NCBI GenBank assembly: GCA_035271645.1
Contig: DATERJ010000012.1
Location: 93,551 to 157,550, forward strand
DNA: 64,000 nucleotides
DNA from: Candidatus Dojkabacteria bacterium
Lineage (GTDB): Bacteria > Patescibacteriota > Dojkabacteria > SC72
Direction of reading: 5' to 3'
Shown here one piece after another: positions 39,871 to 55,123 of this stretch (the stretch's first letter is position 1; each line of letters begins with the position of its first letter). The notes beneath the pieces were generated by a model, which saw only the letters and a program-made list of their open reading frames with translations, made no database searches and was not told the origin of the DNA. The translations under genes and the position numbers were made by a program.

Positions 39871-40707
39871 TTACCTAATTTTCTTCCGAAAAAACATTAA
39901 AACGAATATTCCTCCAAGTATAAGCGCACCAATTCCTATGTCCTTATAAAAGACATTAGGATTACCACTACCTCCCGAGGGGGGGATAATGATATCAGGA
40001 GTTGGTGTCATTGGAGGATCTGTAGGTTCCTCCGTAGGCACTTCAGTTGGCTCCTGTGTTGGAGCATTCGTTGGCGTTGCCGTCGGAGATTCCGTAGGCG
40101 TCGCTGTCGGAGATTCCGTAGGCGTCGCTGTTGGAGATTCCGTAGGTGTTGCCGTCGGAGATTCTGTAGGTGTTGCCGTTGGAGGTTCCGTAGGCGTCGC
40201 TGTCGGAGGTTCCGTAGGTGTTGCCGTTGGAGATTCTGTAGGTGTTGCTGTTGGAGATTCTGTAGGCGTCGCTGTTGGAGATTCCGTAGGTGTTGCTGTT
40301 GGAGCTTCCGTAGGCGTCGCTGTCGGACATATTTCTAAATAACTCACATGACTTAGGTCATGTCGGCACGGAGACAAAACAAAATGATATGGCATCTCCT
40401 CAGGTGGGTCTAGATATATCGGTCCTGGGCAGTCGTTACCAGCCTTCCAACAATATCCAGCAAGAAGACAACCATCTTGACTGGGATTGAACCAGTATTC
40501 ACAAGGTTCCGTTGGATTATCATCCTTAATCCAACCATTACCTTCAGGACATGTCTGTTGCCCTGGTTTAGTTGGAGTTGGGGATGAAATTGTATAGATA
40601 TTACCTAATTGCTCTTTTGCAGAGACATTTGTATCTGCAGATGTAAAGATGCTAAGAGAAAGTAGGATTACAAACAATACGATAGAAATTGAAATGAATT
40701 TTTTCAT
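39871..40707 (-). CDS. Secreted Pro/Thr-repeat surface protein with C-terminal TM anchor
   Basis: Signal peptide and a Cys-rich N-terminal domain. About 12 tandem PTATPTES octapeptide repeats, then …GALILGGIFVLMFFRKKIR. Confidence 0.6.
   Translation of the reverse strand: MKKFISISIVLFVILLSLSIFTSADTNVSAKEQLGNIYTISSPTPTKPGQQTCPEGNGWIKDDNPTEPCEYWFNPSQDGCLLAGYCWKAGNDCPGPIYLDPPEEMPYHFVLSPCRHDLSHVSYLEICPTATPTEAPTATPTESPTATPTESPTATPTESPTATPTEPPTATPTEPPTATPTESPTATPTESPTATPTESPTATPTESPTATPTNAPTQEPTEVPTEEPTDPPMTPTPDIIIPPSGGSGNPNVFYKDIGIGALILGGIFVLMFFRKKIR
40036..40330. repeat. 24-bp tandem repeat array (~12 units) encoding the PTATPTES repeats
   Basis: Unit gtcggagattccgtaggcgtcgct with wobble variants. 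It explains the antisense GVAVGDSV ORF at 39989..40342. Confidence 0.85.
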
Positions 40708-40869
40708 TTAAACCTCTTCTTTCTTTTTTTATAGTTTCCTATTCTCAATATTCAACTTTTAAAGTGCTATATTAAAATCATAAAGCGATTAAATATTTAG
40801 CGACCAAGCTCGTATCTAATCAGATTTCAACATCATATTATATCACAAAAGTGGACAGAACACAGCACA

Positions 40870-42048
40870 CTATGGGGTGATAGTGTATCTAATTTTTGTT
40901 TCAAGAATCTTTAGGACTTTTTGATCAACATTTATCTCTTTTGTCTTAACTGCATCTAAAAGTGATTGATATGCTACTCTTTGTGAATATCTATCATCAT
41001 TAGAATATTGAATATACATTAACATATCCATACCGCTTTCTATCGATTGCCTTGCTAGATTTGAAGGAGTGTTTAAGTTCTTTAATGCTCTCATCTCCAT
41101 ATCATCAGAGATTATGAGACCTTGGTATCCTAAATCATTGACTAATCTGTTTGTAATTATTTCTTTTGAGATAGAGGCTGGTAAAGAAGCGATATTAGGA
41201 AAGAGAATATGTCCAACCATAATACCATCAATATCTTCCTCTCTGATGACTTGACTAAAAGGTCTAATGTAGTTATCCCATTGTTTTTTAGTAATATTAA
41301 CACTAGGTAGTTTCTTATGTGGGTCCGTAGTTGTTTCCCCATGTCCAGGGAAGTGTTTAAGTACAGCTAGTACATTGGTATCCTTGTACCCTCTTACGGA
41401 AGAGATGGTTTTTTGTACAGTCTCTTCCATATCTCCTCTGTATGTTCTTTGGTACATAAAGGAGGTTGTTGAATTACTAAATTCAGCAACTGGTGCTAGG
41501 TTCATGTTAATGCCTAAACCTCTTAATATCTCTCCTCTACTCTTTGCAATCTGATATGCTTCTTCTGGGCTGGATATATTCCCTTGAGGTTTGGTTAAGG
41601 TTTCATTCCATTTTAATCTTGATACTACCCCACCCTCTTGATCTATGGAGATAAAAAGGGGAATGGTGGGGTTTGTAGATTGAATTTCAGCAATGAGGTT
41701 CTTTAACTGTTTTTCATTAGTGATGTTTTTAGAGAAGAGTATTACTCCTCCAGGTTTTGTATCTATGAGAAATTGTTTATTTTGTGGGTTTAGAGATTTA
41801 TTTCCTTCAATACCAAAGATGAATAATTGTCCTACTTTTTCTTCAGGTGTCATTTGAGATAGGAGTACTTCTTCATATGGTTTTGGAGGTTCTGATTCCT
41901 CTGTTTTGTCTATTATAATTTCTTCAACATTGGGCTGTTCTATTTCAATCACTACACTCTTCTTTTGATAGTGTTGATATATGCGAAGCGATATGAGCGA
42001 GATAATTGAAAGTATTAATAGAACAAGAAGTACTGTCTTTCGTCTCAT
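40870..42048 (-). CDS. nagZ: Beta-N-acetylhexosaminidase, GH3 family (NagZ-like), membrane-anchored
   Basis: GH3 KHFPGHGETTTDPH motif and N-terminal TM helix. Confidence 0.75.
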   Translation of the reverse strand: MRRKTVLLVLLILSIISLISLRIYQHYQKKSVVIEIEQPNVEEIIIDKTEESEPPKPYEEVLLSQMTPEEKVGQLFIFGIEGNKSLNPQNKQFLIDTKPGGVILFSKNITNEKQLKNLIAEIQSTNPTIPLFISIDQEGGVVSRLKWNETLTKPQGNISSPEEAYQIAKSRGEILRGLGINMNLAPVAEFSNSTTSFMYQRTYRGDMEETVQKTISSVRGYKDTNVLAVLKHFPGHGETTTDPHKKLPSVNITKKQWDNYIRPFSQVIREEDIDGIMVGHILFPNIASLPASISKEIITNRLVNDLGYQGLIISDDMEMRALKNLNTPSNLARQSIESGMDMLMYIQYSNDDRYSQRVAYQSLLDAVKTKEINVDQKVLKILETKIRYTITP

Positions 42049-42092
42049 GGCTAATTATATCATTACGGTTAAGATATATGGTATAATATGCT

Positions 42093-42797
42093 ATGGGTTG
42101 TGAAAACATTGAAAATCACAATTTAGGTAATGAGCCAAGAGATTTAGATGATATGAGAGGTGAATATGATGTAGCTATCATTGTTTTAAGTGGTCCTGAT
42201 GAAGATGAAAAGTTTAGGGAGTATGCAGCAACACTAGCTCATTTTGAAGCAGGGCTAATGGGTAAGAAAGCTGTTATCATTACTGCTGGTAGTCGTTCTC
42301 ATTTGATAAAAGACAGGCTTGTTAATGAAAGAGATATTCCTGAAGAGGATATAGTTGTTGAGAACCATTCCTATGATACTTCTAGCAATGCTATTTTTAC
42401 TAGTGAGATGTTAATGAGATTAGGATTTGAGGAGCAAGGGGATGTTCTGTTGATAACAAATGGATATCATTTACCTAGGTCAGAGATGTTGTTTAGAAGA
42501 TATTGGGGACCTAGTTTTAAGCCTATCAATGCTGAGAGGTTTCTTTATGAGAATCGTCCTGATAGTTATTCTTTACCAGGTGATACAGAGCCTTATCCAT
42601 ATGGTTTAGATGCAAAGAATCATGAGAATGAACCTAGAACCAGAATCCTTAAGTTTATAGATAGTGTTGTATTCAAAACTATTTATAAATATCCTGCAGG
42701 AGAGTTACTTATGAGAAGTTTAGCTAAAAATAGGTTGCAACAGAGAAAGAAATCACGTAGTCAAATTAATCAAGAAAACCTTCACTTTTCTTCTTAA
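42093..42797 (+). CDS. DUF218 (YdcF/ElyC/SanA-like) protein
   Basis: LLITNGYHLPRSEMLF matches the DUF218 signature. The track ATG lies inside the GCTATGGGTTG motif; the true start may be the ATG at 42153 (MRGEYDV…). Confidence 0.55.
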   Translation: MGCENIENHNLGNEPRDLDDMRGEYDVAIIVLSGPDEDEKFREYAATLAHFEAGLMGKKAVIITAGSRSHLIKDRLVNERDIPEEDIVVENHSYDTSSNAIFTSEMLMRLGFEEQGDVLLITNGYHLPRSEMLFRRYWGPSFKPINAERFLYENRPDSYSLPGDTEPYPYGLDAKNHENEPRTRILKFIDSVVFKTIYKYPAGELLMRSLAKNRLQQRKKSRSQINQENLHFSS

Positions 42798-43886
42798 ATC
42801 CTCTTCACAATTCTTTTTAATTTCATCAAATGTTTGATTTGGAGAAGCTACTTCATATATATCTTGTATTAGATATTCTTTCTTTAACTTACCATCATCT
42901 AATTCATTCCTACCAGCAAAGATAACTAAAGGTATATTTCTTTTAACAGTTCTTTTTGCAATACCACTAATTGTTTTACCCATCATAGATTGTTTATCAA
43001 ACTTCCCCTCCCCTGTTATCACTAAATCAGCATTTTTTAGGGCATTATCAAAATCACAGATATCCAAGATTAGGTCTATACCATGTACAATTTCTGCATT
43101 AAGAAAGAATGAACATGATGCACCTATACCACCAGCAGCACCTCCTCCTTCTATTGTTGATAAATCAACACCAAATTGTTCTTTTACAATTTTTGAGAAG
43201 TGTTGTAGTCCTTCATCAAGAAGTACAACTTCACTATCACTTGCACCTTTTTGTTTGGCATATATGTATGCTGCACCGTTCTTTCCATAGAGGGGATTAA
43301 GGACATCACAGAGGAGAGTAAATTCAACATCTTTTATTCTTTCATCTAGTAAGGTTTTATCAATCCTTACAATATCTTTTAATGTAGATCCTACTGGTAT
43401 GAATTCTTTGTTCTCTTTATCTAAAAACTTAACACCTAAAGCTGATAATAGACCTGTACCTGCATCATTTGTAGCACTTCCACCTAATGCAATGTATATT
43501 TTCTTTACACCTGAAGATATTGCATGGTCAATCTGTTCTCCCATACCTAAGCTAGTTGTATACATTGGGTTTTTAGACTTTGCAAAGAGTAATCCTGCAC
43601 ATTGTCCTGCTTCTATAACCGCAGAGTTATTAAACTTTACATATTTAAAATTTTTCTTAGTAAAATTTGGGGAGGTAAAGGTATCTTCTACATACTCTCC
43701 ATTGAGGTTTTCATGGAAGGTATCTATTGTCCCTTCTCCTCCATCTGCTACTGAGAATCGAATAGTTTCTATATTAGGTATCCCTTTCTCTATCTCTTCC
43801 TGAATAATCCTACCTGCTGTAAGGGAGGTCATTGTTCCTTTGAATGAGTCAGGAGCTATTACAATCTTTATCCTTTTCTTTTCCAT
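42753..43886 (-). CDS. Glycerate kinase
   Basis: KIVIAPDSFKGTMTS N-terminal motif; 377 aa. Confidence 0.8.
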   Translation of the reverse strand: MEKKRIKIVIAPDSFKGTMTSLTAGRIIQEEIEKGIPNIETIRFSVADGGEGTIDTFHENLNGEYVEDTFTSPNFTKKNFKYVKFNNSAVIEAGQCAGLLFAKSKNPMYTTSLGMGEQIDHAISSGVKKIYIALGGSATNDAGTGLLSALGVKFLDKENKEFIPVGSTLKDIVRIDKTLLDERIKDVEFTLLCDVLNPLYGKNGAAYIYAKQKGASDSEVVLLDEGLQHFSKIVKEQFGVDLSTIEGGGAAGGIGASCSFFLNAEIVHGIDLILDICDFDNALKNADLVITGEGKFDKQSMMGKTISGIAKRTVKRNIPLVIFAGRNELDDGKLKKEYLIQDIYEVASPNQTFDEIKKNCEEDLRRKVKVFLINLTT

Positions 43887-45103
43887 AGTTCTCTTTCAAA
43901 TACATTTTGTCCTAAATTTTTTGATTTTTTAGACCAATATCTAGGTAGTTGTTTGTAATCAAATGCATTGATTTTATCAATATATTGATTTACTAAATCT
44001 TCTTCTTTTTGGCTACATCTTTTTGAGAATTCTACTAGTTCTGTATATGTGGCGTTTTGTGAGGCGAGTTTTCTGTCTTCTTCTATGAATTCTTTTTCTA
44101 GTGTTCTTGCTTTTTGCATCCATTCACCTATATCTATGTTGTTTGTATATATTAATCTGTTTAGTTTTTCTCTTTTTAACCAGTATTGGAGACTTTCTTG
44201 CTCGTTTGTAAAGCATGGTGGTACTACAAAGTCTCCTGTGGGGTTGAAGTAGAGAGGTTTGAAGATTGAGAGACATGGTGTTGAACTTCCTGTTATCCAT
44301 ACTGTTATACTTTTGTCATTTACGATTGATACCATACTACCTGTTGAGTGGTCTGTTAGTATTCCTGCATGCATACATATGCTAGTAGATGTTCCATTTT
44401 TGATTGCTTTTTCTTGTGTGGTTGTATGTAGTCTTAGAATATTGAAGTATTGTTCTAAGTTATGTTCTTCTATCTTCTTTATATTCTCTGTACCCATATC
44501 CATTCTACTTTTAGATCCTGAGAAGAATGTTACTATTGGTTCTGTGTGTTTTTGTGCGAAGTTATCTAATGATAGTCTGTTAGAGATGTTTGCACATTGT
44601 TCTACTTTTTTGAGTTGGTATTCTTTTCCTGCTGTTTCTAGTATGTATGCTTCTTCTTTGTCTGCAATTATATATGAGTTGTCATAGTAGAATTCATTAT
44701 CAAAGCCACAGTTTCCACCTTGTCCGTATTCTAGTAGTAGTCTAATTATTTCTTCTGATGCTTGTTTAGCTGTTTTAGTTCTTTCAAGAGCTAGTCTTAT
44801 GAAGTCCATACCTATTAGGGATGGTGTTTTTTTGTTTTTAGATTTTGTAAATACTGCTTCATTCCCTATACTTACTCCATATTCGTTTATTCCCATTTCG
44901 GCTCCCCATATCCATGATGGTTTTACAAGTAATACAGCACAGTGTTCTTTGGGATCAGGTATGGATATGTATGTACATTGTACTTCTCCTCTAGCATTAC
45001 CTGATGGAAAGAAGAGTACTAGATTGGGTTCATTTACAGATCTATCACTGTTTTTAAGGAGTACAGAGTATTGGTTTTGTTTCGTCCATAGTGTATCACA
45101 CAT
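43868..45103 (-). CDS. Ntn-hydrolase peptidase, C69 (dipeptidase)-like
   Basis: MCDT… N-terminal nucleophile Cys directly after Met, and LLKNSDRSVNE; 411 aa. Confidence 0.5.
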   Translation of the reverse strand: MCDTLWTKQNQYSVLLKNSDRSVNEPNLVLFFPSGNARGEVQCTYISIPDPKEHCAVLLVKPSWIWGAEMGINEYGVSIGNEAVFTKSKNKKTPSLIGMDFIRLALERTKTAKQASEEIIRLLLEYGQGGNCGFDNEFYYDNSYIIADKEEAYILETAGKEYQLKKVEQCANISNRLSLDNFAQKHTEPIVTFFSGSKSRMDMGTENIKKIEEHNLEQYFNILRLHTTTQEKAIKNGTSTSICMHAGILTDHSTGSMVSIVNDKSITVWITGSSTPCLSIFKPLYFNPTGDFVVPPCFTNEQESLQYWLKREKLNRLIYTNNIDIGEWMQKARTLEKEFIEEDRKLASQNATYTELVEFSKRCSQKEEDLVNQYIDKINAFDYKQLPRYWSKKSKNLGQNVFERELWKRKG

Positions 45104-45192
45104 ATGTTATTTAAAGATATCATATGGGGGTGGAGGGTGTAAATGATAAAAAGACATTTCTAAAAATATTTGTTAAAATCATGTTGATTTAA

Positions 45193-46134
45193 TTGTTAAG
45201 AAATGTGTTAATGATAGATTTCTCAAAAACACTTCAGTCTTTTTTAAAACAAGCTAATACTTCAGATTTGAAGACTAGTTTGTATCCTAAAGTTTACAAT
45301 GACTTAACAGTAAAAGTCTCTTTTGGACAAGGATCTTCGGCTAGAATTCCTTGGATTGCTTTTCTTACTGATGGAATCCAGGTTAGCAATGGTTTTTATC
45401 CTGTTTATCTCTATTACAAAGAATACAATACACTTATTCTTTCTTATGGTATAAGCGAAACTAATGAATTTAGTTCTACATGGCCACCTGAAGTAATTGG
45501 ACTAGCTCCAACGATTTTTGATTTTTTTAGTCATAAAGTAGCTCGATATGGAAGTTCATATGTTTACAAAGCGTATAATGTTGAAATTACTAATAACGAG
45601 GTTTTCTTGTTAGATACACATGATGGAAAGAAAAAAAATAGTGATGAGATAAATAATGATTTGCTAACTATTTTAAATAAATATAAAAAAGTGTTTGATG
45701 AGGGTGAGCATACTGAAACAGTAGAAAATATAGGTATAGGACTCTTTTACATGGAAAAACAACTCGAGGACTTCCTTATTCAGAATTGGGATAATACAGA
45801 GTTTGGAGAGAAATATGAATTGATCATAGAGGAAGGTGAGATTGTTAGTCAACAATACAGAACAGATGTCGGGCCAATAGATATACTTGCTAAAGATAAG
45901 GTTAACGGTAATTATGTAGTAATAGAATTGAAAAAAGATCAAACCAATGATAACACCATTGGGCAACTAACTCGATATATGGGTTGGGTAAAAGAAAAAT
46001 TAGGGGATAACAATGTTAAAGGTATTATTATCTCAGGAGGATATAATAAGCAACTAGATTATTCTGCAAAGATGGTACCTAATGTTGAGGTATATTCTTA
46101 TAAAATAGATTTTAGAGTTAAGAAGGAGAATTAA
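45193..46134 (+). CDS. Modification-dependent (type IV-like) restriction endonuclease candidate: McrB-N/DUF3578-like reader fused to a NucS/DUF91-like PD-(D/E)xK nuclease
   Basis: N-terminal half has VSFGQGSSARIPWIAF (PWI motif). C-terminal half has GPIDILAKD…YVVIELKKD (D…E-x-K nuclease core). Confidence 0.5.
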   Translation: MLRNVLMIDFSKTLQSFLKQANTSDLKTSLYPKVYNDLTVKVSFGQGSSARIPWIAFLTDGIQVSNGFYPVYLYYKEYNTLILSYGISETNEFSSTWPPEVIGLAPTIFDFFSHKVARYGSSYVYKAYNVEITNNEVFLLDTHDGKKKNSDEINNDLLTILNKYKKVFDEGEHTETVENIGIGLFYMEKQLEDFLIQNWDNTEFGEKYELIIEEGEIVSQQYRTDVGPIDILAKDKVNGNYVVIELKKDQTNDNTIGQLTRYMGWVKEKLGDNNVKGIIISGGYNKQLDYSAKMVPNVEVYSYKIDFRVKKEN

Positions 46135-46148
46135 TTCTTCAAACTCCC

Positions 46149-47585
46149 CTACTGCAACCTCTCAAATTTACCATCTTCTAATTGTCTATAATATCCTGAT
46201 CCCTCTGGTCCATATAGACTCCATGAGTTAATAGGAACTTGATATGCTTGACCTGTACTTGGTGAAGATAATGTCTCATATCCTCTCATACCCTCTACCC
46301 ATTTCTCACTAGATTCAGTTATTAAACCTTTATGATAAGCACTACTTTGAACAGTAATAGAAGCTCTTGTATTCTCAGTAGGTTCAACTATTGGTAGTAA
46401 TGTATTCTTCCTTATCATACTACTATCAACAAAATCAAAACTATCTTGCATCTTCTGTAAGGTATCTTTTACATTATCCCAATTCTCAGCTAATGTCATC
46501 TGTCCAAATCCATAAGCTGATGCATATTTAGTCTCACCTGCAGAGTATGGAGGCTGATATATTCCTACAGTTATTTTACCTAGAATAGGTATACCTTGCA
46601 TCTTAGCACTAAGGTTAAACTCCTGTACACTATACCCTAATACCTGAGAAGGTAATACTGTTTCATCTGTTAATGTAAGATCTGTTATTTCCTTAACCTC
46701 TGCGAACGTCTCTTCTACCCAAAATTTAGGTGTATAGTCACCTTTTAATTCTGTTGTGTACATGTAGCTAAGTAATGTTCTTTGATCAGGTCCTACTAAT
46801 TGAATAAAACCTTCTTTCTCTTCTGAGATGGTGTAACCGGTAGCCTTATCTAACTGGAAGTATTTTCCTTTGTATTTCTTAAAACCTTCTGGAGTCTCTT
46901 CCTTTACTTCTTCTTTGGGTTTTGCTGTTAAAATTTCATCTGTAAGTACTTTTGTTCTTGCAAAACACCCAGTAATTTCCTTTAAGAAACCTTCTCTCTC
47001 TTCAAATATCTCTGCAGGTGCCCAATATGCTTTAAATGTAACAAAATCTTTTGTTTTAGAAATATGCATCTTCCCCTTAATATCATATTCGTTGATTTGA
47101 GCTATGACATCTGCATAAATCTCGTCCTCTAACTCTTCTATCTCTTGAATCTCCTGCATCTCAAATGTCCCACCTCCTTCTTCAGTAGTTTCTTTTAAGA
47201 TTTTAGAGAATGTATTTAGGAAATCCTCTTTTGTTAATTCTGGCTGTAATTTAGCAGTATATATGAGTACTGCAGTAGTATTTGTCTCATCTTCCATTAT
47301 TGAGACAGTACCGCTTTCAACCGCATAATACCATCCATTTGGAACACCAATACTAAAGGCGTTCTCAGGATACTCTATCCTCTTCAACGAACAACTAGGG
47401 TTGTCGTTTTCTACAGTCTCAGCATAATACTCATCCCTACCAATACCTAAGTCCTTTAGAATTGTTTCTAAAGATCCTGTTAGGTAGAGAGCACCTAAGA
47501 GTGCAACTACGAGGATTATTATGATTGAAATAATTATAGATTTCTTGTGTTTTGTAAAGAAATCTGTAGACTGGGCTTCTTTCAT
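46149..47585 (-). CDS. Hypothetical N-terminally anchored extracytoplasmic protein
   Basis: TM helix at aa 18-40, then a 430-aa acidic domain with no known motif. Confidence 0.35.
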   Translation of the reverse strand: MKEAQSTDFFTKHKKSIIISIIIILVVALLGALYLTGSLETILKDLGIGRDEYYAETVENDNPSCSLKRIEYPENAFSIGVPNGWYYAVESGTVSIMEDETNTTAVLIYTAKLQPELTKEDFLNTFSKILKETTEEGGGTFEMQEIQEIEELEDEIYADVIAQINEYDIKGKMHISKTKDFVTFKAYWAPAEIFEEREGFLKEITGCFARTKVLTDEILTAKPKEEVKEETPEGFKKYKGKYFQLDKATGYTISEEKEGFIQLVGPDQRTLLSYMYTTELKGDYTPKFWVEETFAEVKEITDLTLTDETVLPSQVLGYSVQEFNLSAKMQGIPILGKITVGIYQPPYSAGETKYASAYGFGQMTLAENWDNVKDTLQKMQDSFDFVDSSMIRKNTLLPIVEPTENTRASITVQSSAYHKGLITESSEKWVEGMRGYETLSSPSTGQAYQVPINSWSLYGPEGSGYYRQLEDGKFERLQ

Positions 47586-47694
47586 ATTATTTAAATATAA
47601 AAAATTAAGTCCTTAGATAAATAATAGCAGATATGTGAGTGGTGTCAAATAGATTGCATAGGTTACAAATATATGAATTCTAAAGCCATACAGT

Positions 47695-49347
47695 TTATCC
47701 CTTAGCCACTAAAACAAATCTTTCTATTGTATCTCTACTCATATTCAATGATTTGGGAAGTTGTTCCTCTATTCTATCAACCCACCTACCTTCTAGAAGA
47801 TGTATGTTCTTAATTTCACTTACACTCTCCCCAACACTCATATACAGTTCATCTAAAGTATCCTTACCCTCTTTAGCAGAATGTAAGATTGTATCTTGCA
47901 TAGACTTGCTAACAGAATACTTACCAAAATCTCCAACAAATATATTTGAAAAATATTCTTTTAGGTATGAGGTAGTTATAGAGGTAGTAGGAAATATACC
48001 ATCTTTATTTCTTATCCCATTCAATACCACTTTAGGTTTAACAACCCTATCAAACCCTGCAGAGAGTCTAAGATAATCCAAAGTATTACTATCAGCACCT
48101 GTTGTTTTTAAATATTCCAACACCTCATCAACCTTGCTCTCAAATGAAAGTAGTTCACCTAAGTTACTGTTGCTATCTCTCACTTGTGAGTACTTAAAAA
48201 TATCACTAATCTTTTTAATAATATTATTAGGAATATTACTGTCTCCTACAATCTCTACTATATCATCATCTGATAGGATCCTATCAACATCTTCAGTTGT
48301 ATACTCCTTCTTAACCTCATACTCTAGATTGTAATCATTCTTAAGAAGATACTTTATCTCATTGTACAAAACTACTCCTAATATCGGTTCATCTTTAGTA
48401 AATTCTCCAATCCACATTCTAAGATTTCGCCCTATCCTGTTCTGCTCTTTTGTACTTTTTGTACCCATTCTCTCTTTAAGAGCATTAGCCATCTCTCTAG
48501 CTATCTCTGTATGTACTAACTTCTCAGGCTCATATTGGCCTGGAAAAGTAATGACTTCATTGGTTGATAGTACAAATTTGTATTGTAATGGCTTCTTATC
48601 TCCATCACGACTTTTTTGTTCCACTTCTATTTTGTAGAATGAGGAAGTTAATGATTTATCCTCAAGAAGTAATTTTAAAGCCAGAACACTATCAAATCCA
48701 TGTTTTTCAACAGAATGACCATCGTATGATATTCTTTCTGGATTATCTAAATATATCTGGAAGTACTCTTGTATCTTTGACATATCACCTTTCACATTGG
48801 ATAGGTTAAAACCATACTCTAATTTATTAGAACGGTATACTGGTATTTCTAATCCATTCTTGTCTAAGACAGCAGTACCATCTTCATATCTATATATCTT
48901 CTTCCTTTTTCCATTTGGTCCATTCTCATATTGTAAATATCTAGCTTCTTCCTCATTACTATTTATATGCGAAAGGTCTGGTTTGAGTATTCCGTATGAT
49001 AAATCTCTTCTTCTTACAAATATCATATCTCCATTAAATTTTATACCTTTTGTATGTCTTAAGTATTCTTCTGTAACGATAGTAATACCTTTAGATCTGT
49101 ATACATGAGTATTTACAAAAGCATTACTAACCTCATTACTATCTATACCTTCAATTCTGTTAATATCTAAATTCTTAGTTTCGTATGTCTGAACTCCAAT
49201 TACTAAAGGAAAAGGAAGGTTCTCCTTTATCAGTCGATTGAACTGATCAACTTCTACAGAATTAGAACCAGGTGTTATTAATGATACTGGGGTTGTATCT
49301 AGTTCTGTTTCTTCAGTTTGTAATGTTGGATCATCATCTATACCCAT
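47695..49347 (-). CDS. Hypothetical 550-aa protein (orphan)
   Basis: Long ORF with ordinary coding composition and no recognisable motif. The GCTATGGGTTG promoter module lies ~50 nt upstream. Confidence 0.35.
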   Translation of the reverse strand: MGIDDDPTLQTEETELDTTPVSLITPGSNSVEVDQFNRLIKENLPFPLVIGVQTYETKNLDINRIEGIDSNEVSNAFVNTHVYRSKGITIVTEEYLRHTKGIKFNGDMIFVRRRDLSYGILKPDLSHINSNEEEARYLQYENGPNGKRKKIYRYEDGTAVLDKNGLEIPVYRSNKLEYGFNLSNVKGDMSKIQEYFQIYLDNPERISYDGHSVEKHGFDSVLALKLLLEDKSLTSSFYKIEVEQKSRDGDKKPLQYKFVLSTNEVITFPGQYEPEKLVHTEIAREMANALKERMGTKSTKEQNRIGRNLRMWIGEFTKDEPILGVVLYNEIKYLLKNDYNLEYEVKKEYTTEDVDRILSDDDIVEIVGDSNIPNNIIKKISDIFKYSQVRDSNSNLGELLSFESKVDEVLEYLKTTGADSNTLDYLRLSAGFDRVVKPKVVLNGIRNKDGIFPTTSITTSYLKEYFSNIFVGDFGKYSVSKSMQDTILHSAKEGKDTLDELYMSVGESVSEIKNIHLLEGRWVDRIEEQLPKSLNMSRDTIERFVLVAKG

Positions 49348-49866
49348 ATTTCATATTAACAAAATTAGATGGATATTAGTAGGTAGAAATGATATAATGC
49401 TATGGGTTGAGATCGTTGAAAATGGAGGTGTAGTATTACAAAAAAGATAGTTATTTGGATTGTTGGGAATCAGTACATTGGGGCAAAAGATACATCTGGG
49501 TTAATTTATATTAATTTAACTCAAAATGATTTAATAATTCCCCAATCTGGACATATTGCATATGTTCTTGAAAAGAAGATCATCGGACTTCCTCCGAGGG
49601 TGGATAATGTTCGTTTTGTTGTAGATAACTTTGTTCTTCTTATGTCAGGAAGAAAAGATTTGGTATCTATTGATACTGTAGAACAATTACTATCAAACTC
49701 AACCTAATTGGTAGGTATCTTATATTTTTAACAAGAAGATGCCTACCTTTTCTTTATTCCACCTAGATAGCATATTGATTTACAAAAAAAAGGAGCACCT
49801 CCGGTATAATCACTCAAATGAGTAGATATTGTTTTACCATCAACGGTGCTCGTCTTGCATTAATAG

Positions 49867-50247
49867 TTATTCTGGTGCAATGGTTGCATCCACTTCCTCG
49901 TTTAGTATTTGTACTAATTCGGTTATGGGGTCTATGTGTAGATGAGAGCCAACTGGAAGTGGTTTAACTTCATGGGTTTCACCATACTTCTGAACAATTG
50001 CATTTAGCCAAGTTTCAAAGTTCTCCTTGGTTACTCCCTCTGCTGAAATATCTGCCAACCAAGGCATTTGTTCCAAAAGAAATGGTTGGCACTCTTTAGA
50101 TGCTCTTGGTAATTGGTGGGTAAATAGGTTGTCATTTGTCATAAAGTTGAGTATTGCATAAACACCCTCCATATGACTAGGGGCCAGTAGATATCCAGTG
50201 GTGACTGACAAAATATCCCCAATGTGAAAAGCTTTAGATTTAGACAT
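49867..50247 (-). CDS. Hypothetical 126-aa protein (orphan)
   Basis: Preceded by duplicated promoter/leader module copy A. Confidence 0.35.
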   Translation of the reverse strand: MSKSKAFHIGDILSVTTGYLLAPSHMEGVYAILNFMTNDNLFTHQLPRASKECQPFLLEQMPWLADISAEGVTKENFETWLNAIVQKYGETHEVKPLPVGSHLHIDPITELVQILNEEVDATIAPE

Positions 50248-50284
50248 ATTTTTATTCTCCTTGTTTCTTTGTTGTTTTTAACAT

Positions 50285-50585
50285 ATCCGAATGGATAGCT
50301 TATTAACTATTAGATTAGTAATAAGTAATAGGCTACCCACTCAAGATTAAAAAAGAGAGAACCCCAATAAACTATTAAAGTGCAAGTATTTATATTATAT
50401 CATAAAATGAAGAGAAATGCTATGGGTTGTGAGTTGGTTGACATAATTATGAACTTAGAACTGTAAGAGATTTTTTATCTTGAAAATGTGCTTAAGGAAA
50501 GAATGTTGTTTTATAAAGAAGAAAAGCCTGAAGGTTTATGAGATAGATGGATAGTATACACTACACGGGAATCCCTACTTCAGGC
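50285..50585. repeat. ~300-bp promoter/leader/3'-hairpin module, copy A
   Basis: Shares with copy B ATCCGAATGGATAGC…GCTACCCACTC (a hairpin-forming leader), TTAAAGTGCAAGT, the ATTATATCATAAAA -10, CTATGGGTTG and a near-identical 165-nt tail ending in the AGCCTGAAG…CTTCAGGCT stem. Confidence 0.8.
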
Positions 50586-50603
50586 TATTCTTGCACTTAT
50601 TTA

Positions 50604-51215
50604 TTAATCAAATGTGGAAGTTACCTCCAAGACATACTTTTTGTCAGCATTTTTTACGATTGCTGCTGTAGTTAGTGCTCCCCCTCCTATTGCAAGGATA
50701 ACTAATAAGATTATTAGGAATCCTGCAGCAGAGTCCTTACTACTACGTCTTTTATTACTTTTACTACCCCCTAAGAAGAAATCTGTAACACTTTGAAATG
50801 CTCCAGGTGTATGTTTAGCTGCAGACCATATATTTCGTGCCTGAGCGTAAGTATTCCAGCCAGCTACAGCAATATCTCCAAATTGTCTTTTTTTCCAAGC
50901 ATTAATAATAGAGTGAACCCAAATCACAGTTCCACTTGTAAGTAATGCAGGGATTAAAATGAGATATCCTAGGTTGAACATCACCGAGGCTTGATCGGGA
51001 GTTAAATATTCTAATGCTGTAGCACCAATTGTCAGAATAGTCAGATATACCCAAGTAAATCCAACTGCTGACATAACAACACTGGCCCAAACAAGAACTC
51101 TTGGCCAGCCTTTGATAATCTTTACTTCGGTCCAAAATCGACCAGCACTCCAAGCATTCCACCACGAAATGCCGAAGTTCAACAACAGACATAACAACAA
51201 AATTAATGGGTTCAT
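50604..51215 (-). CDS. Hypothetical 5-TM membrane protein (Trp-rich)
   Basis: 203 aa with hydrophobic helices. It is flanked on both sides by the duplicated module. Confidence 0.4.
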   Translation of the reverse strand: MNPLILLLCLLLNFGISWWNAWSAGRFWTEVKIIKGWPRVLVWASVVMSAVGFTWVYLTILTIGATALEYLTPDQASVMFNLGYLILIPALLTSGTVIWVHSIINAWKKRQFGDIAVAGWNTYAQARNIWSAAKHTPGAFQSVTDFFLGGSKSNKRRSSKDSAAGFLIILLVILAIGGGALTTAAIVKNADKKYVLEVTSTFD

Positions 51216-51262
51216 TATTTATTCTTCTCCTTTACATGGTAATTTACTGCAATTTGCAGGCA

Positions 51263-51569
51263 ATCCGAATGGATAGCTTCTGAGGTATTAGGAGATTACT
51301 TAATACCGTAGAAGCTACCCACTCTTTTTGAGAGTAAAATGAGAAGTAACCTTCCATCGATTGTTAAAGTGCAAGTGGTTACATTATATCATAAAACGAG
51401 AAACAACACTATAGGTTGTAGGTCAATTGGTTGACATAATTATGAACTTGGAACGGTCAGAGATTTTTTTATCTTGAAAATGTGCTTAAGGAAAGAATGT
51501 TGTTTTATAAAGAAGAAAAGCCTGAAGGTTTATGAGATAGATGGGTAGTATACACTACACGGGAATCCC
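51263..51569. repeat. ~300-bp promoter/leader/3'-hairpin module, copy B
   Basis: See copy A. The distal 165 nt are ~97% identical, and the leader hairpin keeps its base-pairing through compensatory substitutions. Confidence 0.8.
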
Positions 51570-51601
51570 TACTTCAGGCTCTGTCTTTAACAAACTGATA
51601 T

Positions 51602-52030
51602 TTACTCTTTCCTGTGGCTAATATGGCCATAGATACGATATGGATAACCATTTCCGCGGTTGACACCAGCAATTATATGAACCAATTGAAGAGCAGGATT
51701 GTTATAATACCTTCTCAAATAATCTTCATATAATGCAGGGGTTCCTTCTGGGAAATTCTTACTTGCTTCCTGAAAAGACTCTTGAGATTTCTTGTAATCC
51801 CATTCATACAGTTGGTCAGAATAAACGTAATTGACACCAACCACAATATCGCTCCCGAATGAGGAAATCAATTCATTGCCAGGGGCTAGAAAGATGGTTT
51901 GCTCGTTGTTGTGAAAGCGACCGTCTGAGTAATGGGGATTCAAGAGATTCCAAGTTATAGGCGTGTTTTTATCTGTTTCAACATGAATAATTTGTCGAGT
52001 CATTTTCTTTTCCTTTCTAGTTGAGAACAA
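51602..52030 (-). CDS. Hypothetical 142-aa protein (orphan)
   Basis: Located immediately downstream (on the minus strand) of tRNA-His and the GCTATGGGTTG/TATAAT module. Confidence 0.35.
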   Translation of the reverse strand: MFSTRKEKKMTRQIIHVETDKNTPITWNLLNPHYSDGRFHNNEQTIFLAPGNELISSFGSDIVVGVNYVYSDQLYEWDYKKSQESFQEASKNFPEGTPALYEDYLRRYYNNPALQLVHIIAGVNRGNGYPYRIYGHISHRKE

Positions 52031-52106
52031 ACGGATCGAGTAAACTTTTTAGTTGTTAAATAACTCTATAATTATATCAAAGAACAGGGGAAATTGCTAT
52101 GGGTTG

Positions 52107-52184
52107 TGGGGTGGAAGATGGGACTTGAACCCACAACCTCTGGTGCCACAAACCAGCGCTCTAACCAGTTGAGCTACATCCACC
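52107..52184 (-). tRNA. tRNA-His (anticodon GTG), G-1 and CCA encoded
   Basis: Reverse complement G-GTGGATGTAGCTCAACTGGTTAGAGCGCTGGTTTGTGGCACCAGAGGTTGTGGGTTCAAGTCCCATCTTCCACC-C-CCA. The extra 5' G pairs with C73, as is typical of tRNA-His. Confidence 0.85.
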
Positions 52185-52310
52185 ATATTCGTATATATTA
52201 TTATACTACATAATCTGTCCCTTAGCTATTGGTACTTGTGATTTTATCTCTTGAGTGTTATGATTATCTGCTATTTGATTTCCAAATATTTTAATTAGCT
52301 ATTTAATACA

Positions 52311-52772
52311 ATGAAAGACAACAAACTAATCATCTCTAAAGATATGTTTGCTAAACTTAAAGAAGAACTCAGGAAGCTCCTAGAGACTAGGAAGGAACTA
52401 AACAAAAACTTGGAACATGCTAGACAGAGTGATGTTAGCGAAGATACTGATTCCATTGCTGCTGTTACAGATGAGATAAGTAAGATTAATATGAAGGTTG
52501 AGGATATTGAGGAAACTCTCGAGCACGCAACTGTTATGGAGAAGAAAGGAAAAAAGACATGTGTTGATATAGGGTCTGTTGTAAAAGTAAAAACTAATGG
52601 TAAGACTCAGGAGTTTACAGTAGTTTCTGATGTAGAAGCTAATCCCTTAGAAAGAAAGATTTCAGATAAATCTCCATTAGGTAAACAATTGATGAATGGT
52701 AAAAAGGGGAAGAAAGTTGTAGTTAAAACAGAAGATGGAGATGTTGAATATGAGATAGTCGAGGTTTCTTAG
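52311..52772 (+). CDS. greA: Transcription elongation factor GreA
   Basis: N-terminal coiled-coil plus C-terminal FKBP-like ISDKSPLGKQLMNGKKGKKVVVKTEDGDVEYEIVEV. Confidence 0.8.
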   Translation: MKDNKLIISKDMFAKLKEELRKLLETRKELNKNLEHARQSDVSEDTDSIAAVTDEISKINMKVEDIEETLEHATVMEKKGKKTCVDIGSVVKVKTNGKTQEFTVVSDVEANPLERKISDKSPLGKQLMNGKKGKKVVVKTEDGDVEYEIVEVS

Positions 52773-54082
52773 GCTATATATTCATCTAAATCCTCAATCT
52801 TTACTCTTTCCTGTTTCATTGTATCTCTATCTCTTACAGTAACAGTATTGTTTTCTAATGTCTCATAATCAATTGTGATACAGTAAGGTGTCCCAATTTC
52901 ATCTTGATATCTGTATCTCTTACCAATATTTCCTCTACCATCCCATACAACTTTGTAAGAATCAGAGAGCAAGTCAAAGACCTCTCTTGCTTTCTTAACA
53001 ATATCTTCCTTGTTTCCAACAAGTGGAAATATTGCAGCTCTGTATGCAGCAATATCTTTGTGTATCTTTAATACTGTCCTAATATTTCCTCCACCCAAAT
53101 CTTCTTCTTCGTATGCATCAAGGAGAAGGTAGAGGAATGTTCTAGTAACACCACCAGATGTTTCTACAATGTTTGGAATATATTTTTCATTTGTAATTGG
53201 GTCTGTATATGTTAAATCTGTTCCTGAGAACTTCATATGTTGTGTTAAATCATAGTCACCTCTCCAATGTATACCTTCATTCTCAGCCCATCCCCAAGGA
53301 GTTAAATATTCAATATCGTATGCATCTTTAGCATAGAAGACTAACTTGTCTTTTGGATGCTGATAGAATCTAAGATTGTCATGTTTTCTGTAAAGTTCTT
53401 TGTAGAACTTCATTCTTTCTTCTTTCCAATATTCAAAATATTTCCCCATATCATTAGGATGCACAAAGAATTGTAAATCCCACTGTTCAAACTCTCTCAC
53501 TCTAAAGGTAAATCTTCCAGGAGTAATCTCATTTCTAAATGCTTTACCTATCTGTGCAATACCAAAAGGAATCTGTTGCCTTGTACTATCTACAACATTC
53601 TTAAAGTTTAGATATATATTTTGGCATGCTTCACCTCTTAGATATGCTTTTACTTTAGAACCTTCAATTACACCAACTTCTGTTGCAAAGAGAAGATTAT
53701 ATGACCTGGGTTCTGTAAAATCTTTCTTACCACAGTTTGGACACTTCTCTTCAATATCTTCAGGTCTAAATCTCTGATGACAACCCTTACATTCAACTAC
53801 CTCATCACCAAAATTTTCTACATGACCTGATGCTTCCCAAACCTTAGGATGTGTAATGATTGTTCCATCAATTCCAACAACATTCTCCCTTTTATCAACC
53901 ATATTCTTCCACCAGTACCTCTTAAGGTTGTTCAACATCTCAACACCTACAGGACCGTAGTCATAGAAGCCCCCTATACCTCCATATATCTCTGAATTTG
54001 GGTATATTATCCCTCTTCTCTTACAAAGGGCAACTATATTATCAAGTGTATTTTTATCTTCCATGGATTTATTATATATCAA
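52769..54082 (-). CDS. glyQS: Glycine--tRNA ligase, dimeric alpha2 type
   Basis: N-terminal …CKRRGIIYPNSEIYGGIGGFYDYGPVG… and class II aaRS motifs; 437 aa. Confidence 0.85.
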   Translation of the reverse strand: MIYNKSMEDKNTLDNIVALCKRRGIIYPNSEIYGGIGGFYDYGPVGVEMLNNLKRYWWKNMVDKRENVVGIDGTIITHPKVWEASGHVENFGDEVVECKGCHQRFRPEDIEEKCPNCGKKDFTEPRSYNLLFATEVGVIEGSKVKAYLRGEACQNIYLNFKNVVDSTRQQIPFGIAQIGKAFRNEITPGRFTFRVREFEQWDLQFFVHPNDMGKYFEYWKEERMKFYKELYRKHDNLRFYQHPKDKLVFYAKDAYDIEYLTPWGWAENEGIHWRGDYDLTQHMKFSGTDLTYTDPITNEKYIPNIVETSGGVTRTFLYLLLDAYEEEDLGGGNIRTVLKIHKDIAAYRAAIFPLVGNKEDIVKKAREVFDLLSDSYKVVWDGRGNIGKRYRYQDEIGTPYCITIDYETLENNTVTVRDRDTMKQERVKIEDLDEYIA

Positions 54083-54159
54083 ATATTTAAGTAAACCAAT
54101 ATTTTTAATTAAAAACTATACATCATTGCTTCTTTCTTCATATTCCAATATATTAATAT

Positions 54160-55110: not shown

Positions 55111-55123
55111 TTTTTACTTCCCC

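Follow-up and report, generated by a model that had tools for sequence, protein, structure and literature searches.

The window analysed here, a single 64-kb stretch of the genome of an uncultivated Dojkabacteria (CPR) bacterium, was compared with ~80 kb of sequence from close relatives. Next to tRNA-His it contains an array of small units of 0.7–1.7 kb, bounded by copies of a short motif that all have one orientation, in the order tRNA-His, motif-A, motif-B, motif-C, motif-D, degenerate motif. Cassettes A–C are single genes with promoters of their own; genes B and C are members of phage protein families and have a leader of ~150 nt in common, a long hairpin with a T-run lies ~60 nt upstream of the motif in both of these cassettes, and genes A and B each end in a hairpin/T-run terminator downstream. 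A terminator-promoter-leader module of ~210 nt is reused before unrelated genes, and the cassette content varies by strain (L016, L024). Promoters carrying the motif also precede an orphan gene pair, the gene of a PT-repeat surface protein, two putative ncRNAs and an NAD-salvage operon, and they mainly drive accessory or horizontally acquired units (Table 1).

Read on the minus strand the motif is CAACCCATAGC, an 11-mer found in four exact copies in the window against 0.01 expected. Its plus-strand form, GCTATGGGTTG, occurs exactly at 42090, 49399, 50419 and 52096, in every case on the plus strand as written. Together with five variants carrying one or two mismatches (2969, 3406, 8017, 51408 and 59681), these copies bear out the nine sites listed in an initial annotation of this DNA, and we added copies at 40869 (CACCCCATAGT), at 24157–24163 (core only) and at 47656–47664 (the degenerate AACCTATGC). 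With variants included, the core CCYATAGY has 10 copies in the window, all on a single strand. The uniform orientation that had been claimed is likewise real: CCCATAG is split 10:0 between minus and plus strand in the window, and 17:0 when the strain variant L034 and the loci of close relatives are tallied in the same chromosomal orientation. Nine of the 10 CCCATAG copies fall at gene boundaries, in intergenic DNA ± 8 nt, which makes up ~11% of the window. The loose 8-mer CCYATAGY is not over-represented as such (10 found versus 6.9 ± 2.7 in shuffles), and the non-random part of the signal is its strand, its location and its partner elements. The motif occurs about once per 6 kb, with its G-rich form on the strand that has positive replication-associated GC skew. 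Because 2969 and 3406 are copies of one promoter module, and because 50419 and 51408 (probably 59681 too) share the terminator-promoter-leader module, the sites are not all independent, and we count about seven that are.

Table 1. Motif copies, associated promoter elements and leader words in the window
Feature	Position	Strand	Context
Exact motif CAACCCATAGC	52096–52106	-	Directly after encoded CCA of tRNA-His (at 52107); 19 nt upstream of TATAAT
Extended -10 TGATATAAT, promoter of gene A (142 aa), no -35 hexamer	52071–52079	-	
Motif variant CAACCTATAGT	51408–51418	-	TATAAT 19 nt downstream
Extended -10 TGATATAAT, cassette gene B (membrane protein, phrog_37671)	51383–51391	-	
Exact motif CAACCCATAGC	50419–50429	-	TATAAT 19 nt downstream
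Extended -10 TGATATAAT, cassette gene C (DUF7736, phrog_15963)	50394–50402	-	
Exact motif CAACCCATAGC, upstream of gene D (550 aa)	49399–49409	-	On the plus strand directly after TGATATAAT (49390–49398)
Extended -10 TGATATAAT adjoining the motif	49390–49398	+	
Exact motif CAACCCATAGC	42090–42100	-	nagZ TATAAT 30 nt downstream
Extended -10 TGATATAAT, leaderless nagZ	42054–42062	-	TATAAT-N5-ATG
Extended -10 TGGTATAAT, DUF218 gene	42079–42087	+	
Motif variant CACCCCATAGT	40869–40879	-	TAG is the nagZ stop codon; TATAAT 26 nt downstream; kept in L040 and L042
Extended -10 TGATATAAT, PT-repeat surface protein gene (39871–40707)	40837–40845	-	
Motif variant AATCCCATAGC	59681–59691	-	12 nt past stop of acetyl-CoA synthetase (ADP-forming type); TATAAT 24 nt downstream
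Extended -10 TGTTATAAT, orphan pair (59032–59580 and 58553–59047)	59651–59659	-	
Motif variant AACCCTATAGC	8017–8027	-	TAG is the stop of the upstream P-loop gene; 19 nt to TATAAT of pncB (NAD salvage) operon; kept in L046
Extended -10 TGATATAAT, pncB operon	7992–8000	-	Conserved inverted repeat downstream, a putative NrtR operator
Motif variant TAACCCATAGT (CAACCCATAGC in strain L034)	3406–3416	-	4 nt past nrtR stop; 3 nt upstream of perfect TTGACA (3397–3402)
Motif variant CAACCCATAGT, promoter of second putative ncRNA	2969–2979	-	Perfect TTGACA (2962–2967) 1 nt downstream
Core-only CCCATAG, typA/giant-gene divergent region; doubtful member	24157–24163	-	Inside spacer of plus-strand TTGCAA-N17-TATAAT promoter
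Degenerate copy AACCTATGC	47656–47664	-	TTGACA of promoter of 478-aa gene 7 nt downstream; at end of homology to relative L042
Leader word GCACTTTAA	50375–50383, 51364–51372, 59634–59642, 40759–40767	-	All four exact copies, each within the 5' leader of a motif-type promoter

The motif is tied to a particular promoter element. Each of the seven TGATATAAT 9-mers in the window has a motif no more than 30 nt away; of 200,000 random placements in intergenic DNA, not one reproduced this result. The distances from motif to TATAAT are 19, 19, 19, 19, 24, 24, 26, 26 and 30 nt, a range of 19–30 nt that replaces the 0–23 nt given previously. Exact 19-nt spacing is seen at 8017, 50419, 51408 and 52096, which represent three independent sites (P about 0.02); measured to the TG of the extended -10, the derived gaps are 16, 21, 23 and 27 nt, with 16 nt at four sites, and at position 6550 of the relative locus L040 the motif stands 1 nt from the -10. 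The common architecture is a C/A-rich tract, CAACCCATAG(C/T), 16 nt and TGATATAAT, with the -35 hexamer absent: a two-hexamer scan of 40001–60000 found no TTGACA-like partner for the minus-strand TGATATAAT elements located there, the -35 position of the 19-nt-spaced promoters reads TAGCAT, TAGCAA or TAGTGT (at most 2/6 matches), and at 59681 it reads TTGTTT. A second arrangement is found in the two ncRNA promoters, where, as had been noticed before, the motif lies 1–3 nt upstream of a perfect TTGACA that is separate from it and placed between motif and -10. The -10 of the motif class is the consensus sigma-70 extended -10 and is class-specific only in the base after TG (A not G); other promoters in the window and in relatives mostly have TGGTATAAT or TGGTAGAAT as -10, and canonical TTGACA/TATAAT promoters coexist with motif promoters in the same genome. 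Relative to the predicted transcription start the motif spans -42 to -32 or -47 to -37, and about -57 to -47 at the HU promoter of distant relatives (L050/L052). The word GCACTTTAA, reported earlier downstream of the -10, was seen there at three sites, with a fourth copy in the leader at 40759.

Promoters bearing the motif are unevenly distributed, numbering 11 of 25 on the minus strand versus none of ~15 on the plus strand (P = 0.003). Among minus-strand junctions, 8–9 of 13 co-directional ones that hold a promoter have the motif, compared with 2–3 of 12 divergent promoters (P = 0.015 for 9/13 versus 2/12). No copy was found at the convergent gene ends tallied in the window (at least eight) or at the four plus-strand co-directional junctions. 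Since the motif is absent at convergent ends and present at co-directional promoter junctions, it tracks promoters rather than gene ends. The association with promoters proposed in the initial annotation is supported by the seven-of-seven link to TGATATAAT, the recurrent 19-nt spacing and footprints at the promoters of pncB and the ncRNAs. The motif is not a core-promoter feature of the lineage at large, given the ~15 plus-strand promoters without it, the low share of divergent minus-strand promoters and the lack of enrichment at distant loci. The statement that every copy points into a minus-strand gene is right for the strand, but it is not the sole reading at 42090 and 49399, where the motif also lies at +1 of strong plus-strand promoters (TGGTATAAT-at-GCTATGG and TGATATAAT-GCTATGG, respectively); both plus-strand forms continue with TTGAAAAT. 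At 42090 the plus-strand form begins 2 nt past TGGTATAAT and includes the ATG that opens the longest DUF218 ORF, and TGATATAAT at 49390 probably drives an unannotated ORF of ~90 codons (49435–49707) that has GGAGG upstream and no standard start codon.

Comparison with relatives shows which parts of these promoters are retained. In the pncB promoters of the window and of L046, whose PncB proteins are 71% identical, both sequences have AACCC(T/C)ATAG(C/T) and TGATA(T/G)AAT the same distance apart and retain the inverted repeat that follows, whereas the sequence of the spacer and the upstream flank have diverged. The L044 pncB promoter has TTGACA-N17-TATTAT and no motif; the presence of TTGACA where the window has the motif fits a motif that substitutes for the -35. 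The motif of the ncRNA promoter is kept in L044 and in strain L034, where its edge bases shift towards the consensus, and the site at the nagZ end is common to the window, L040 and L042. L046 has a motif-like CCACATAGT directly after the nrtR stop, with neither a downstream promoter nor the ncRNA units. In the strain variant L016, the stretch aligned to 51263–52340 contains two exact matches to CAACCCATAGC followed by TGATATAAT. Among the loci compared, the motif is enriched only in the species of the window and its closest relatives: the distant Dojkabacteria loci retrieved through GlyRS (L049, L050, L052, L057 and L058) showed no enrichment, no tRNA-His beside greA and a different synteny. 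Scans of collections for CAACCCATAGC-N15-30-TGATATAAT returned 8 matches in genomes (GTDB representatives), 17 in metagenomes and 2 in viral sequences, all single matches in unrelated organisms at about the chance level; the same scans also found three contigs of the window's own loci and no further genomic copies. The species of the window was also recorded in JGI 3300010351 and 3300009681, ERZ27250651 and SRR13001971. In the viral collection, TGATATAAT-N6-14-GCACTTTAA gave 20 matches, none with the motif upstream. Relatives of the cassette genes in viral contigs and GenBank phages were only distant (31–42% identity; high-GC jumbo phage contigs and phages of unrelated hosts), and the motif was absent from all three viral-contig loci examined around such homologues.

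We consider the motif to be a promoter-proximal protein-binding element, probably the site of an activator or dual regulator, that would mark a class of promoters used mainly for accessory genes; judged from the sequence, we give this reading a probability of roughly 0.45. It has the marks of a transcription-factor site in its excess in promoter regions (9/10 intergenic, 7/7 TGATATAAT) and in its conservation in orthologous promoters amid flank divergence. Working from the observed motif, its strand, position, partner elements and conservation, we infer protein binding, activation and the kind of factor concerned. The motif would be a double-stranded DNA element belonging to a separate class of promoters in this lineage of Dojkabacteria. 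The protein that would recognise its sequence may be a monomeric or otherwise asymmetric transcription factor or, less likely, the C-terminal domain of the RNA polymerase alpha subunit. The bound protein would recruit or stabilise a housekeeping, sigma-70-type holoenzyme on the extended -10 and so replace the missing -35 contact. Where the motif covers the +1 or the spacer of an opposing promoter (42079, 49390 and 24169), the same protein would be expected to repress, hence a dual regulator. Of the options in the initial annotation, a regulator-binding site fits best, shorn of the word global. NrtR and an OmpR-type response regulator were the only regulators found in the window, neither of them linked to motif sites, and searches of the window ORFs by Pfam, PHROGs and context gave no candidate.

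The promoter-element model predicts that most copies stand 16–27 nt upstream of TGNTATAAT, co-oriented with the downstream gene and on both replichores. The restriction of all sites to one chromosomal strand is not something that a simple regulon predicts, and the spacings of 19, 24, 26 and 30 nt, which share no single helical face, are awkward for one activation geometry. Also counted against the promoter-element reading were the enrichment at co-directional junctions, the abutment of stop codons and the tRNA end, the promoterless CCACATAGT of L046 and the coincidence with variable-region boundaries.

Alternatively the motif could be a boundary (insulator) element, at which a bound protein acts in a polar manner to halt RNA polymerase arriving from the upstream co-directional gene and may also set up the downstream promoter. 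Its role would be to keep transcription units apart in a compact genome where intrinsic terminators are scarce. Five upstream units (the nrtR, nagZ, P-loop and acetyl-CoA synthetase genes and tRNA-His) have the motif 0–12 nt past their stop or mature end, as does the Nuc-deoxyribosyltransferase gene in L044; the orientation is always co-directional with the incoming gene, the junction counts are biased in the same sense (9/13 against 2/12), the distance to the -10 varies, and L046 has the motif-like word behind nrtR but no promoter after it. In the scanned region, intrinsic terminators of the canonical kind show no enrichment (11 versus 9.8 expected). However, the at least eight convergent ends and the four plus-strand co-directional junctions have no motif, abutment of stop codons is expected anyway in a streamlined genome, and the exclusive link to TGATATAAT and the recurrent 19-nt spacing are left unexplained. 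Within the scanned region, none of the motif copies coincides with a terminator-like site. Cassettes B and C already have the hairpin and T-run ahead of the motif, so that a terminator or processing role would be redundant there. We judge this reading rather unlikely, and its stricter form, in which one dedicated protein both stops incoming RNA polymerase and nucleates the downstream -35-less promoter, distinctly so. Were it true, the motif would partition a terminator-poor, streamlined CPR genome while travelling with accessory cassettes, and would correspond in bacteria to the promoter-proximal roadblock terminators of eukaryotic systems, such as Reb1/TTF-I or mTERF.

The array beside tRNA-His raises the question of mobility, with the motif as the crossover point of a site-specific recombinase or as the conserved end of mobile, promoter-bearing cassettes; this would account for direct repeats that bound single-gene units by tRNA-His and at insertion points. 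In keeping with it, same-orientation copies bound the 0.7–1.7-kb units, the boundaries of insertions or variable regions fall at several copies, homology to L042 stops at the degenerate copy at 47656–47664, cassette content differs between strains, genes B and C are of phage families, and L046, at a site without the ncRNA units, has just one motif-like copy. One motif copy each is carried by the DUF218 gene, inserted relative to L042, and by the Nuc gene, inserted in L044 relative to the window, but the empty sites of both are without the motif. In L016 the sequence is 99.3% identical to the gene C-type module through the motif and as far as a shared 116-nt repeat of 99% identity, which places the breakpoint of the cassette-B indel in the repeat and not at the motif. 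The pncB motif is kept at fixed spacing in L046 with no insertion, and no integrase or recombinase family was matched among the window ORFs scanned with Pfam. Like integron cassettes, these are units of about 1 kb with one gene, bounded by direct repeats in one orientation; unlike them, they have their own promoters and terminators, the plus-strand GTTG(T/A/G)(G/A)(A/G) fits the GTTRRRY/RYYYAAC cores poorly, and there is no consistent hairpin of the attC palindrome kind. A role of the motif in cassette mobility seems improbable to us.

Two further readings are very unlikely. In one the motif acts at the RNA level: present as CAACCCAUAGC in transcripts, on the 3' side of the genes upstream, it would be an endonuclease or processing site that frees tRNA-His, ncRNA1 and mRNAs. 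The initial annotation was correct in that the copy at 52096 abuts the 3' end of tRNA-His, adjoining the encoded CCA at 52107, and the contact with the ends of five genes, the constant orientation along the upstream transcript and the absence from divergent promoter regions that are untranscribed in that sense would all suit such a signal. Against it, folding of 66-nt windows at ten sites gave no shared hairpin (Z from -2.9 to +2.5, the lowest being the tRNA itself), a result that also speaks against a REP/BIME-type repeat; the motif lies downstream of the terminators at cassettes B and C, keeps a fixed distance to the -10 at pncB, has no adjacent upstream co-directional gene end at 42090 and does not follow plus-strand genes on their own strand. 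Rfam at the gathering threshold recognised only four tRNAs and the glmS ribozyme in the whole window, and permissive scans of 2300–3500 (ncRNAs) and 49300–52300 (cassette leaders) added nothing at or near the sites.

The other is a core promoter element read by RNA polymerase itself, be it a divergent -35, the -35 of an alternative sigma factor with GATATAAT as -10, or a UP-like site for the alpha C-terminal domain, as the initial annotation had variously proposed. The pairing with a specific -10 variant, the 16-nt gap to TG at four sites and the placement at -47 to -37 and about -57 to -47, which coincides with UP-element subsites, would agree with this. Gaps to TG of 16, 21, 23 and 27 nt nevertheless exceed the tolerance of ± 1–2 nt of the sigma-70 family, the -10 is a sigma-70 consensus, the TTGACA of the ncRNA promoters gives sigma region 4 a site of its own, canonical TTGACA promoters coexist in the genome and most promoters lack the motif; these points speak against a -35 variant or an alternative-sigma -35. 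UP elements are A/T-rich and degenerate and are bound by the RNA polymerase alpha C-terminal domain. Like a UP element (-40 to -60), the motif lies upstream of or overlaps the -35 region of apparently strong promoters (the ncRNAs, and HU in L050/L052) at about -37 to -57; it differs in being an almost invariant, C-rich 11-mer flanked upstream by C/A-rich sequence, and in also overlapping the -35 position, its full range of -32 to -57 overlapping -40 to -60 only partly.

Finally, it is extremely unlikely that GCTATGGGTTG acts on the plus strand, as a transcript start (initial transcribed sequence or leaderless AUG) or as a strand-skewed word of the Chi/KOPS type: the copies at 42090 and 49399 do directly follow strong plus-strand extended -10s and run on into TTGAAAAT, the 42090 ATG opens an ORF, and the 10:0 and 17:0 strand skew, the density and the GC-skew strand are of the Chi/KOPS kind, yet only 2–3 of 11 sites have a plus-strand promoter or sense target, transcripts made elsewhere would be antisense to tRNA-His or to the 3' ends of genes, Chi/KOPS words are distributed regardless of coding status whereas 9/10 copies here are intergenic, and the link to minus-strand TGATATAAT would have no explanation.

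The promoter architecture and regulation of CPR/Patescibacteria are almost unstudied; a cross-phylum compilation of transcription start sites includes a single CPR organism (PMC12641261), and our literature search on CPR or Dojkabacteria promoter motifs found nothing specific. An 11-mer tied to -35-less extended -10 promoters offers a handle for annotating transcription units and accessory cassettes in these MAGs, would aid identification of a CPR regulator by DNA affinity or DAP-seq, and, if a co-culture of Dojkabacteria proves tractable, would help in designing expression signals. The strict strand bias and co-directional preference could point to an insulation mechanism. As a lineage-specific cis-regulatory site the motif is plausibly an ordinary kind of feature, useful rather than surprising, and its novelty is modest.

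Judged by eye against consensus sequences, several known elements were rejected. The core of a T7/SP6-type promoter (cACTATAGG, plus strand) fails in that the 12–17 nt upstream are not conserved, and the sigma-32 -10 (CCCCATnT) has no TTGAAA at the right distance upstream; the ECF -35 'AAC', pho-box direct repeats, MraZ TGGG repeats, CRP half-sites, the IHF consensus, the RfaH ops element and integron core sites fit inconsistently. We know of no described box with sequence similarity to the motif. Moron-type or 'mobile promoter' modules resemble cassettes A–C in being self-contained, with two phage-family genes and a reused terminator-promoter-leader module. They differ in that the 11-mer is found also at non-duplicated promoters with dissimilar spacers and is kept at the chromosomal pncB promoter, so that module duplication does not by itself account for it.

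In architecture the motif resembles class II activator sites and the T4 MotA box, which are likewise short asymmetric words in fixed orientation at the -35 position, with a near-consensus (extended) -10 and no TTGACA; its placement with respect to the -10 varies more than theirs. A further parallel is Pcauto of acetogens, a promoter motif confined to that lineage, at which a TetR-family protein activates together with sigma-A (PMC6873888). Pcauto was defined from mapped transcription start sites and tested in vivo, whereas the present motif was recognised in the sequence, and the gene set there is central metabolism as opposed to accessory cassettes and ncRNAs. Both are promoter motifs of one lineage serving a subset of genes, and at Pcauto the housekeeping sigma factor works together with an accessory protein that binds DNA and RNA polymerase.

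In the window, whose G+C content is 35%, the 11-mer GCTATGGGTTG occurs in four exact copies compared with 0.01 in shuffled sequences, and with its variants it bears out the recurrence reported in the initial annotation. The minus-strand consensus is a C/A-rich flank followed by CAACCCATAG(C/T). The loose 8-mer CCYATAGY occurs at chance frequency (10 copies versus 6.9 ± 2.7); the non-random features are strand and place. CCCATAG is split 10:0 between the strands, 9 of its 10 copies fall in intergenic DNA (±8 nt), which makes up roughly 11% of the window, and it is the top intergenic-specific 7-mer among those that are not AT-rich. The sites at 2969 and 3406 belong to one duplicated promoter module, and a terminator-promoter-leader module is common to 50419 and 51408 and probably 59681, leaving about seven independent sites. 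The analysis covered 64 kb of this genome plus about 80 kb of sequence belonging to close relatives. Apart from the window's own loci, pattern scans of genome and metagenome collections gave matches at chance level only.

Coordinates of motif copies (read on the minus strand) and associated features, in window positions unless a relative's locus is named
Feature	Position	Strand	Gap to TATAAT (nt)	Remark
Motif, exact	42090	minus	30	
Motif, exact	49399	minus		
Motif, exact	50419	minus	19	
Motif, exact	52096	minus	19	
Motif, variant	2969	minus	24	
Motif, variant	3406	minus	26	
Motif, variant	8017	minus	19	
Motif, variant	51408	minus	19	
Motif, variant	59681	minus	24	
Motif, variant	40869	minus	26	added in this analysis
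Motif, core only	24157-24163	minus		added in this analysis
Motif, degenerate (AACCTATGC)	47656-47664	minus		added in this analysis
Motif, new copy	L044:9075		24	
Motif, new copy (CCTATAGT)	L040:6550			between cas12a and next gene; abuts TGTTATAAT
Leader with GCACTTTAA(C)	50250-50400	minus		
Leader with GCACTTTAA(C)	51220-51390	minus		
Leader with GCACTTTAA(C)	59585-59650	minus		
Leader with GCACTTTAA(C)	40710-40835	minus		
Apparent leaderless start	42048-42062			
Apparent leaderless start	42079-42095			
Apparent leaderless start	20868-20884			
Candidate ncRNA	2580-2940	minus		
Candidate ncRNA	3030-3370	minus		
nrtR	3421-4254			
pncB-leader inverted repeat	7950-7990	minus		
Hairpin/T-run module	50471-50586			
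Hairpin/T-run module	51465-51580			
Predicted surface protein gene	39871-40707			24-nt repeats at 39971-40354
glmS	55124-56908			
glmS ribozyme	56936-57070	minus		
cas12a-cas4?-cas1-cas2 locus	L040:2660-8345			

The motif is closely tied to the 9-mer TGATATAAT. No window copy of this 9-mer is more than 30 nt away from a motif: of the seven, six are minus-strand copies downstream of a motif, and the seventh is a plus-strand copy that abuts one. When the seven sites were placed at random in intergenic DNA with the motifs fixed, 0 of 200,000 placements matched this proximity. Other promoter-like extended -10 elements in the window and its relatives are mostly TGGTATAAT, TGGTAGAAT or TGTTAAAAT. 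Recurrence of one motif-to-TATAAT spacing at three independent sites has a P of about 0.02 under a uniform model. A two-hexamer scan of 40001-60000 detected canonical promoters (e.g. TTGACA-16-TATTAT at 47648) but paired none of the minus-strand TGATATAAT elements in that range with a -35. Both ncRNA promoters, as initially annotated, have a perfect TTGACA just downstream of the motif, at a distance of 1 or 3 nt.

Loci from relatives were obtained via NagZ, PncB and GlyRS homologues. The best named relatives of NagZ and glycyl-tRNA synthetase belong to Candidatus Dojkabacteria (WS6), a lineage of the CPR/Patescibacteria. Several metagenomes, from digesters, sludge and other sources, contain the window's species at 99-100% identity. 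The promoter of pncB (NAD salvage) keeps AACCC(T/C)ATAG(C/T), a spacer of equal length, TGATA(T/G)AAT and, further downstream, an inverted repeat between the window and the close relative L046 (71% PncB identity), with a diverged spacer sequence and upstream flank and a different upstream gene. This repeat, TGTGTAAAT-N13-ATTTACACA, is probably an operator for NrtR (Nudix-related), whose gene ends the same operon. In another close relative, L044 (78% identity), the motif is missing from the pncB promoter, which carries TTGACA-N17-TATTAT and is homologous to a second window promoter near 11330; the latter precedes four genes at 8018-11273 (three radical SAM, one P-loop kinase-like), which lie between a 226-aa radical SAM gene and pncB and are missing from both relatives. 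The ncRNA-promoter motif is kept in L044, with edge bases nearer the consensus in the strain variant L034, and the site at the nagZ end is kept in the relatives L040 and L042. L040 also has a cas12a locus directly upstream of nagZ that is missing from the window. Over the window, L034 and the close relatives, CCYATAGY lies on the window-minus-equivalent strand in 17 of 17 cases. Five loci from more distant Dojkabacteria show no enrichment of the word, which falls there mostly in coding sequence; as far as seen among these loci, the motif is confined to the species of the window and its nearest relatives. The only suggestive case among the five is in L050 (~16700) and L052 (~16630), where the HU promoter TTGAC(G/T)-N17-TATTTT has CCCATA(G/A)T 11 nt upstream of its -35 in otherwise diverged sequence; a related upstream element may occur more widely at a few strong promoters.

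Promoters of this type precede three single-gene cassettes (A-C) beside tRNA-His and the neighboring gene D. They also precede the pncB operon, a leaderless nagZ, the gene for a PT-repeat surface protein, a pair of orphan genes behind the acetyl-CoA synthetase gene and two candidate RNAs of ~350 nt without an Rfam match. Genes B and C have phage-family matches (phrog_37671; phrog_15963/DUF7736). All four exact window copies of GCACTTTAA lie in leaders of such promoters; the ~150-nt leader common to cassettes B and C, for which no Rfam match was found, also contains GAGTGGGTAGC-(hairpin)-GCTATCCATTCGGAT, and the word or the leaders may be a cis-regulatory RNA or else an operator. Genes A and B are each followed by a long hairpin and T-run, within a 116-nt module 99% identical between the cassettes.

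Much of the DNA served by these promoters is variable. L042, ~95% identical elsewhere, lacks a counterpart of the region 47656-52106 and has a gene for a restriction-modification methyltransferase at that point. The region is a variable island beside tRNA-His in which each unit is a single gene with a promoter of its own; cassette B is apparently missing in strain variant L016, and a B-like gene apparently lies upstream in L024. Within it, a ~90-codon plus-strand open frame (49420-49707), downstream of the plus-strand TGATATAAT at 49390, has GGAGG 6 nt before an ATT and its first ATG, GTG or TTG at codon ~56; it has no Pfam or PHROG match and may be a pseudogene or a gene that starts at a non-standard codon. 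The DUF218 gene and its motif are likewise an insertion relative to L042 (~720 bp; 42049-42797), in which the glycerate kinase-nagZ gap is 6 nt and the nagZ -10 lies within the kinase gene. Since nagZ is only ~85% identical to that of L042 and its flanks ~95%, recombinational replacement is suggested. The tandem, partly paralogous candidate ncRNAs, each with a perfect TTGACA-N17-TATAAT promoter, a common 5' hairpin (GTAGGATAAT..ATCCTAGCTCTTAAAAA) and a similar 3' end, gave no Rfam match even at E<=1; they occur in L044 and are missing from L046, which has a PedC-like gene in their place. The nagZ, DUF218 and queH genes look leaderless (TATAAT, 5 nt, ATG; tabulated above in this order), and most other genes have a GGAG-type Shine-Dalgarno. 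Eleven tandem repeats in the surface protein gene encode TPTE(S/A/P)PTA units, whose number varies among relatives, and a glmS ribozyme above the Rfam gathering score lies upstream of glmS.

Three other roles remain candidates because of where the motif lies: it could be a polar boundary or roadblock element, a signal for RNA processing or the core of a recombination site. It is present in ~11 of 25 minus-strand promoter regions and 0 of 15 on the plus strand (P = 0.003), and at 8-9 of 13 co-directional junctions versus 2-3 of 12 divergent minus-strand promoters (P = 0.015). It often abuts or overlaps an upstream stop codon or tRNA CCA end, and in L046 the motif-like CCACATAGT directly follows the nrtR stop, with the next gene convergent. 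Motif copies also bound the cassette units, the degenerate one lying at the end of L042 homology. However, the motif is missing from all of the window's convergent gene ends that were tallied (at least eight), terminators already lie upstream of it in cassettes B and C, no RNA structure is common to the sites, and no recombinase was found among the scanned window ORFs. For two insertions, the motif is missing from the empty site; one cassette indel between strains falls in the 116-nt repeat and not at the motif; and stop-codon abutment is expected anyway in a streamlined genome. We consider a transcription-unit boundary or cassette element improbable, though more interesting if true.

The initial annotation had the motif always pointing into minus-strand genes; a plus-strand reading, in which it starts a transcript or supplies a leaderless AUG, suits 42090 and 49399 alone. 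The motif's intergenic confinement contradicts a Chi/KOPS-like strand word, even though the G-rich form lies on the strand whose replication-associated GC skew is positive. The -35 variant, alternative sigma factor and UP element also proposed initially are argued against by the variable spacing to the -10, the separate TTGACA found in both ncRNA promoters, the canonical promoters that this genome also has, the C-rich motif and the many promoters, most of the total, that lack it.

The motif is a genuine cis element, conserved and lineage-restricted, that goes with one specific class of promoters. Of the readings first proposed, a regulator binding site is the one that we favor: from its sequence context, the motif would be a promoter-proximal protein-binding site defining a -35-less extended -10 promoter class. 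Most likely, the bound protein would activate transcription by contacting the holoenzyme, and it would repress where the motif overlaps an opposing plus-strand promoter (42079, 49390 and 24169). Such activation through holoenzyme contact, which we infer here, would resemble that of class II activators and the T4 MotA box.
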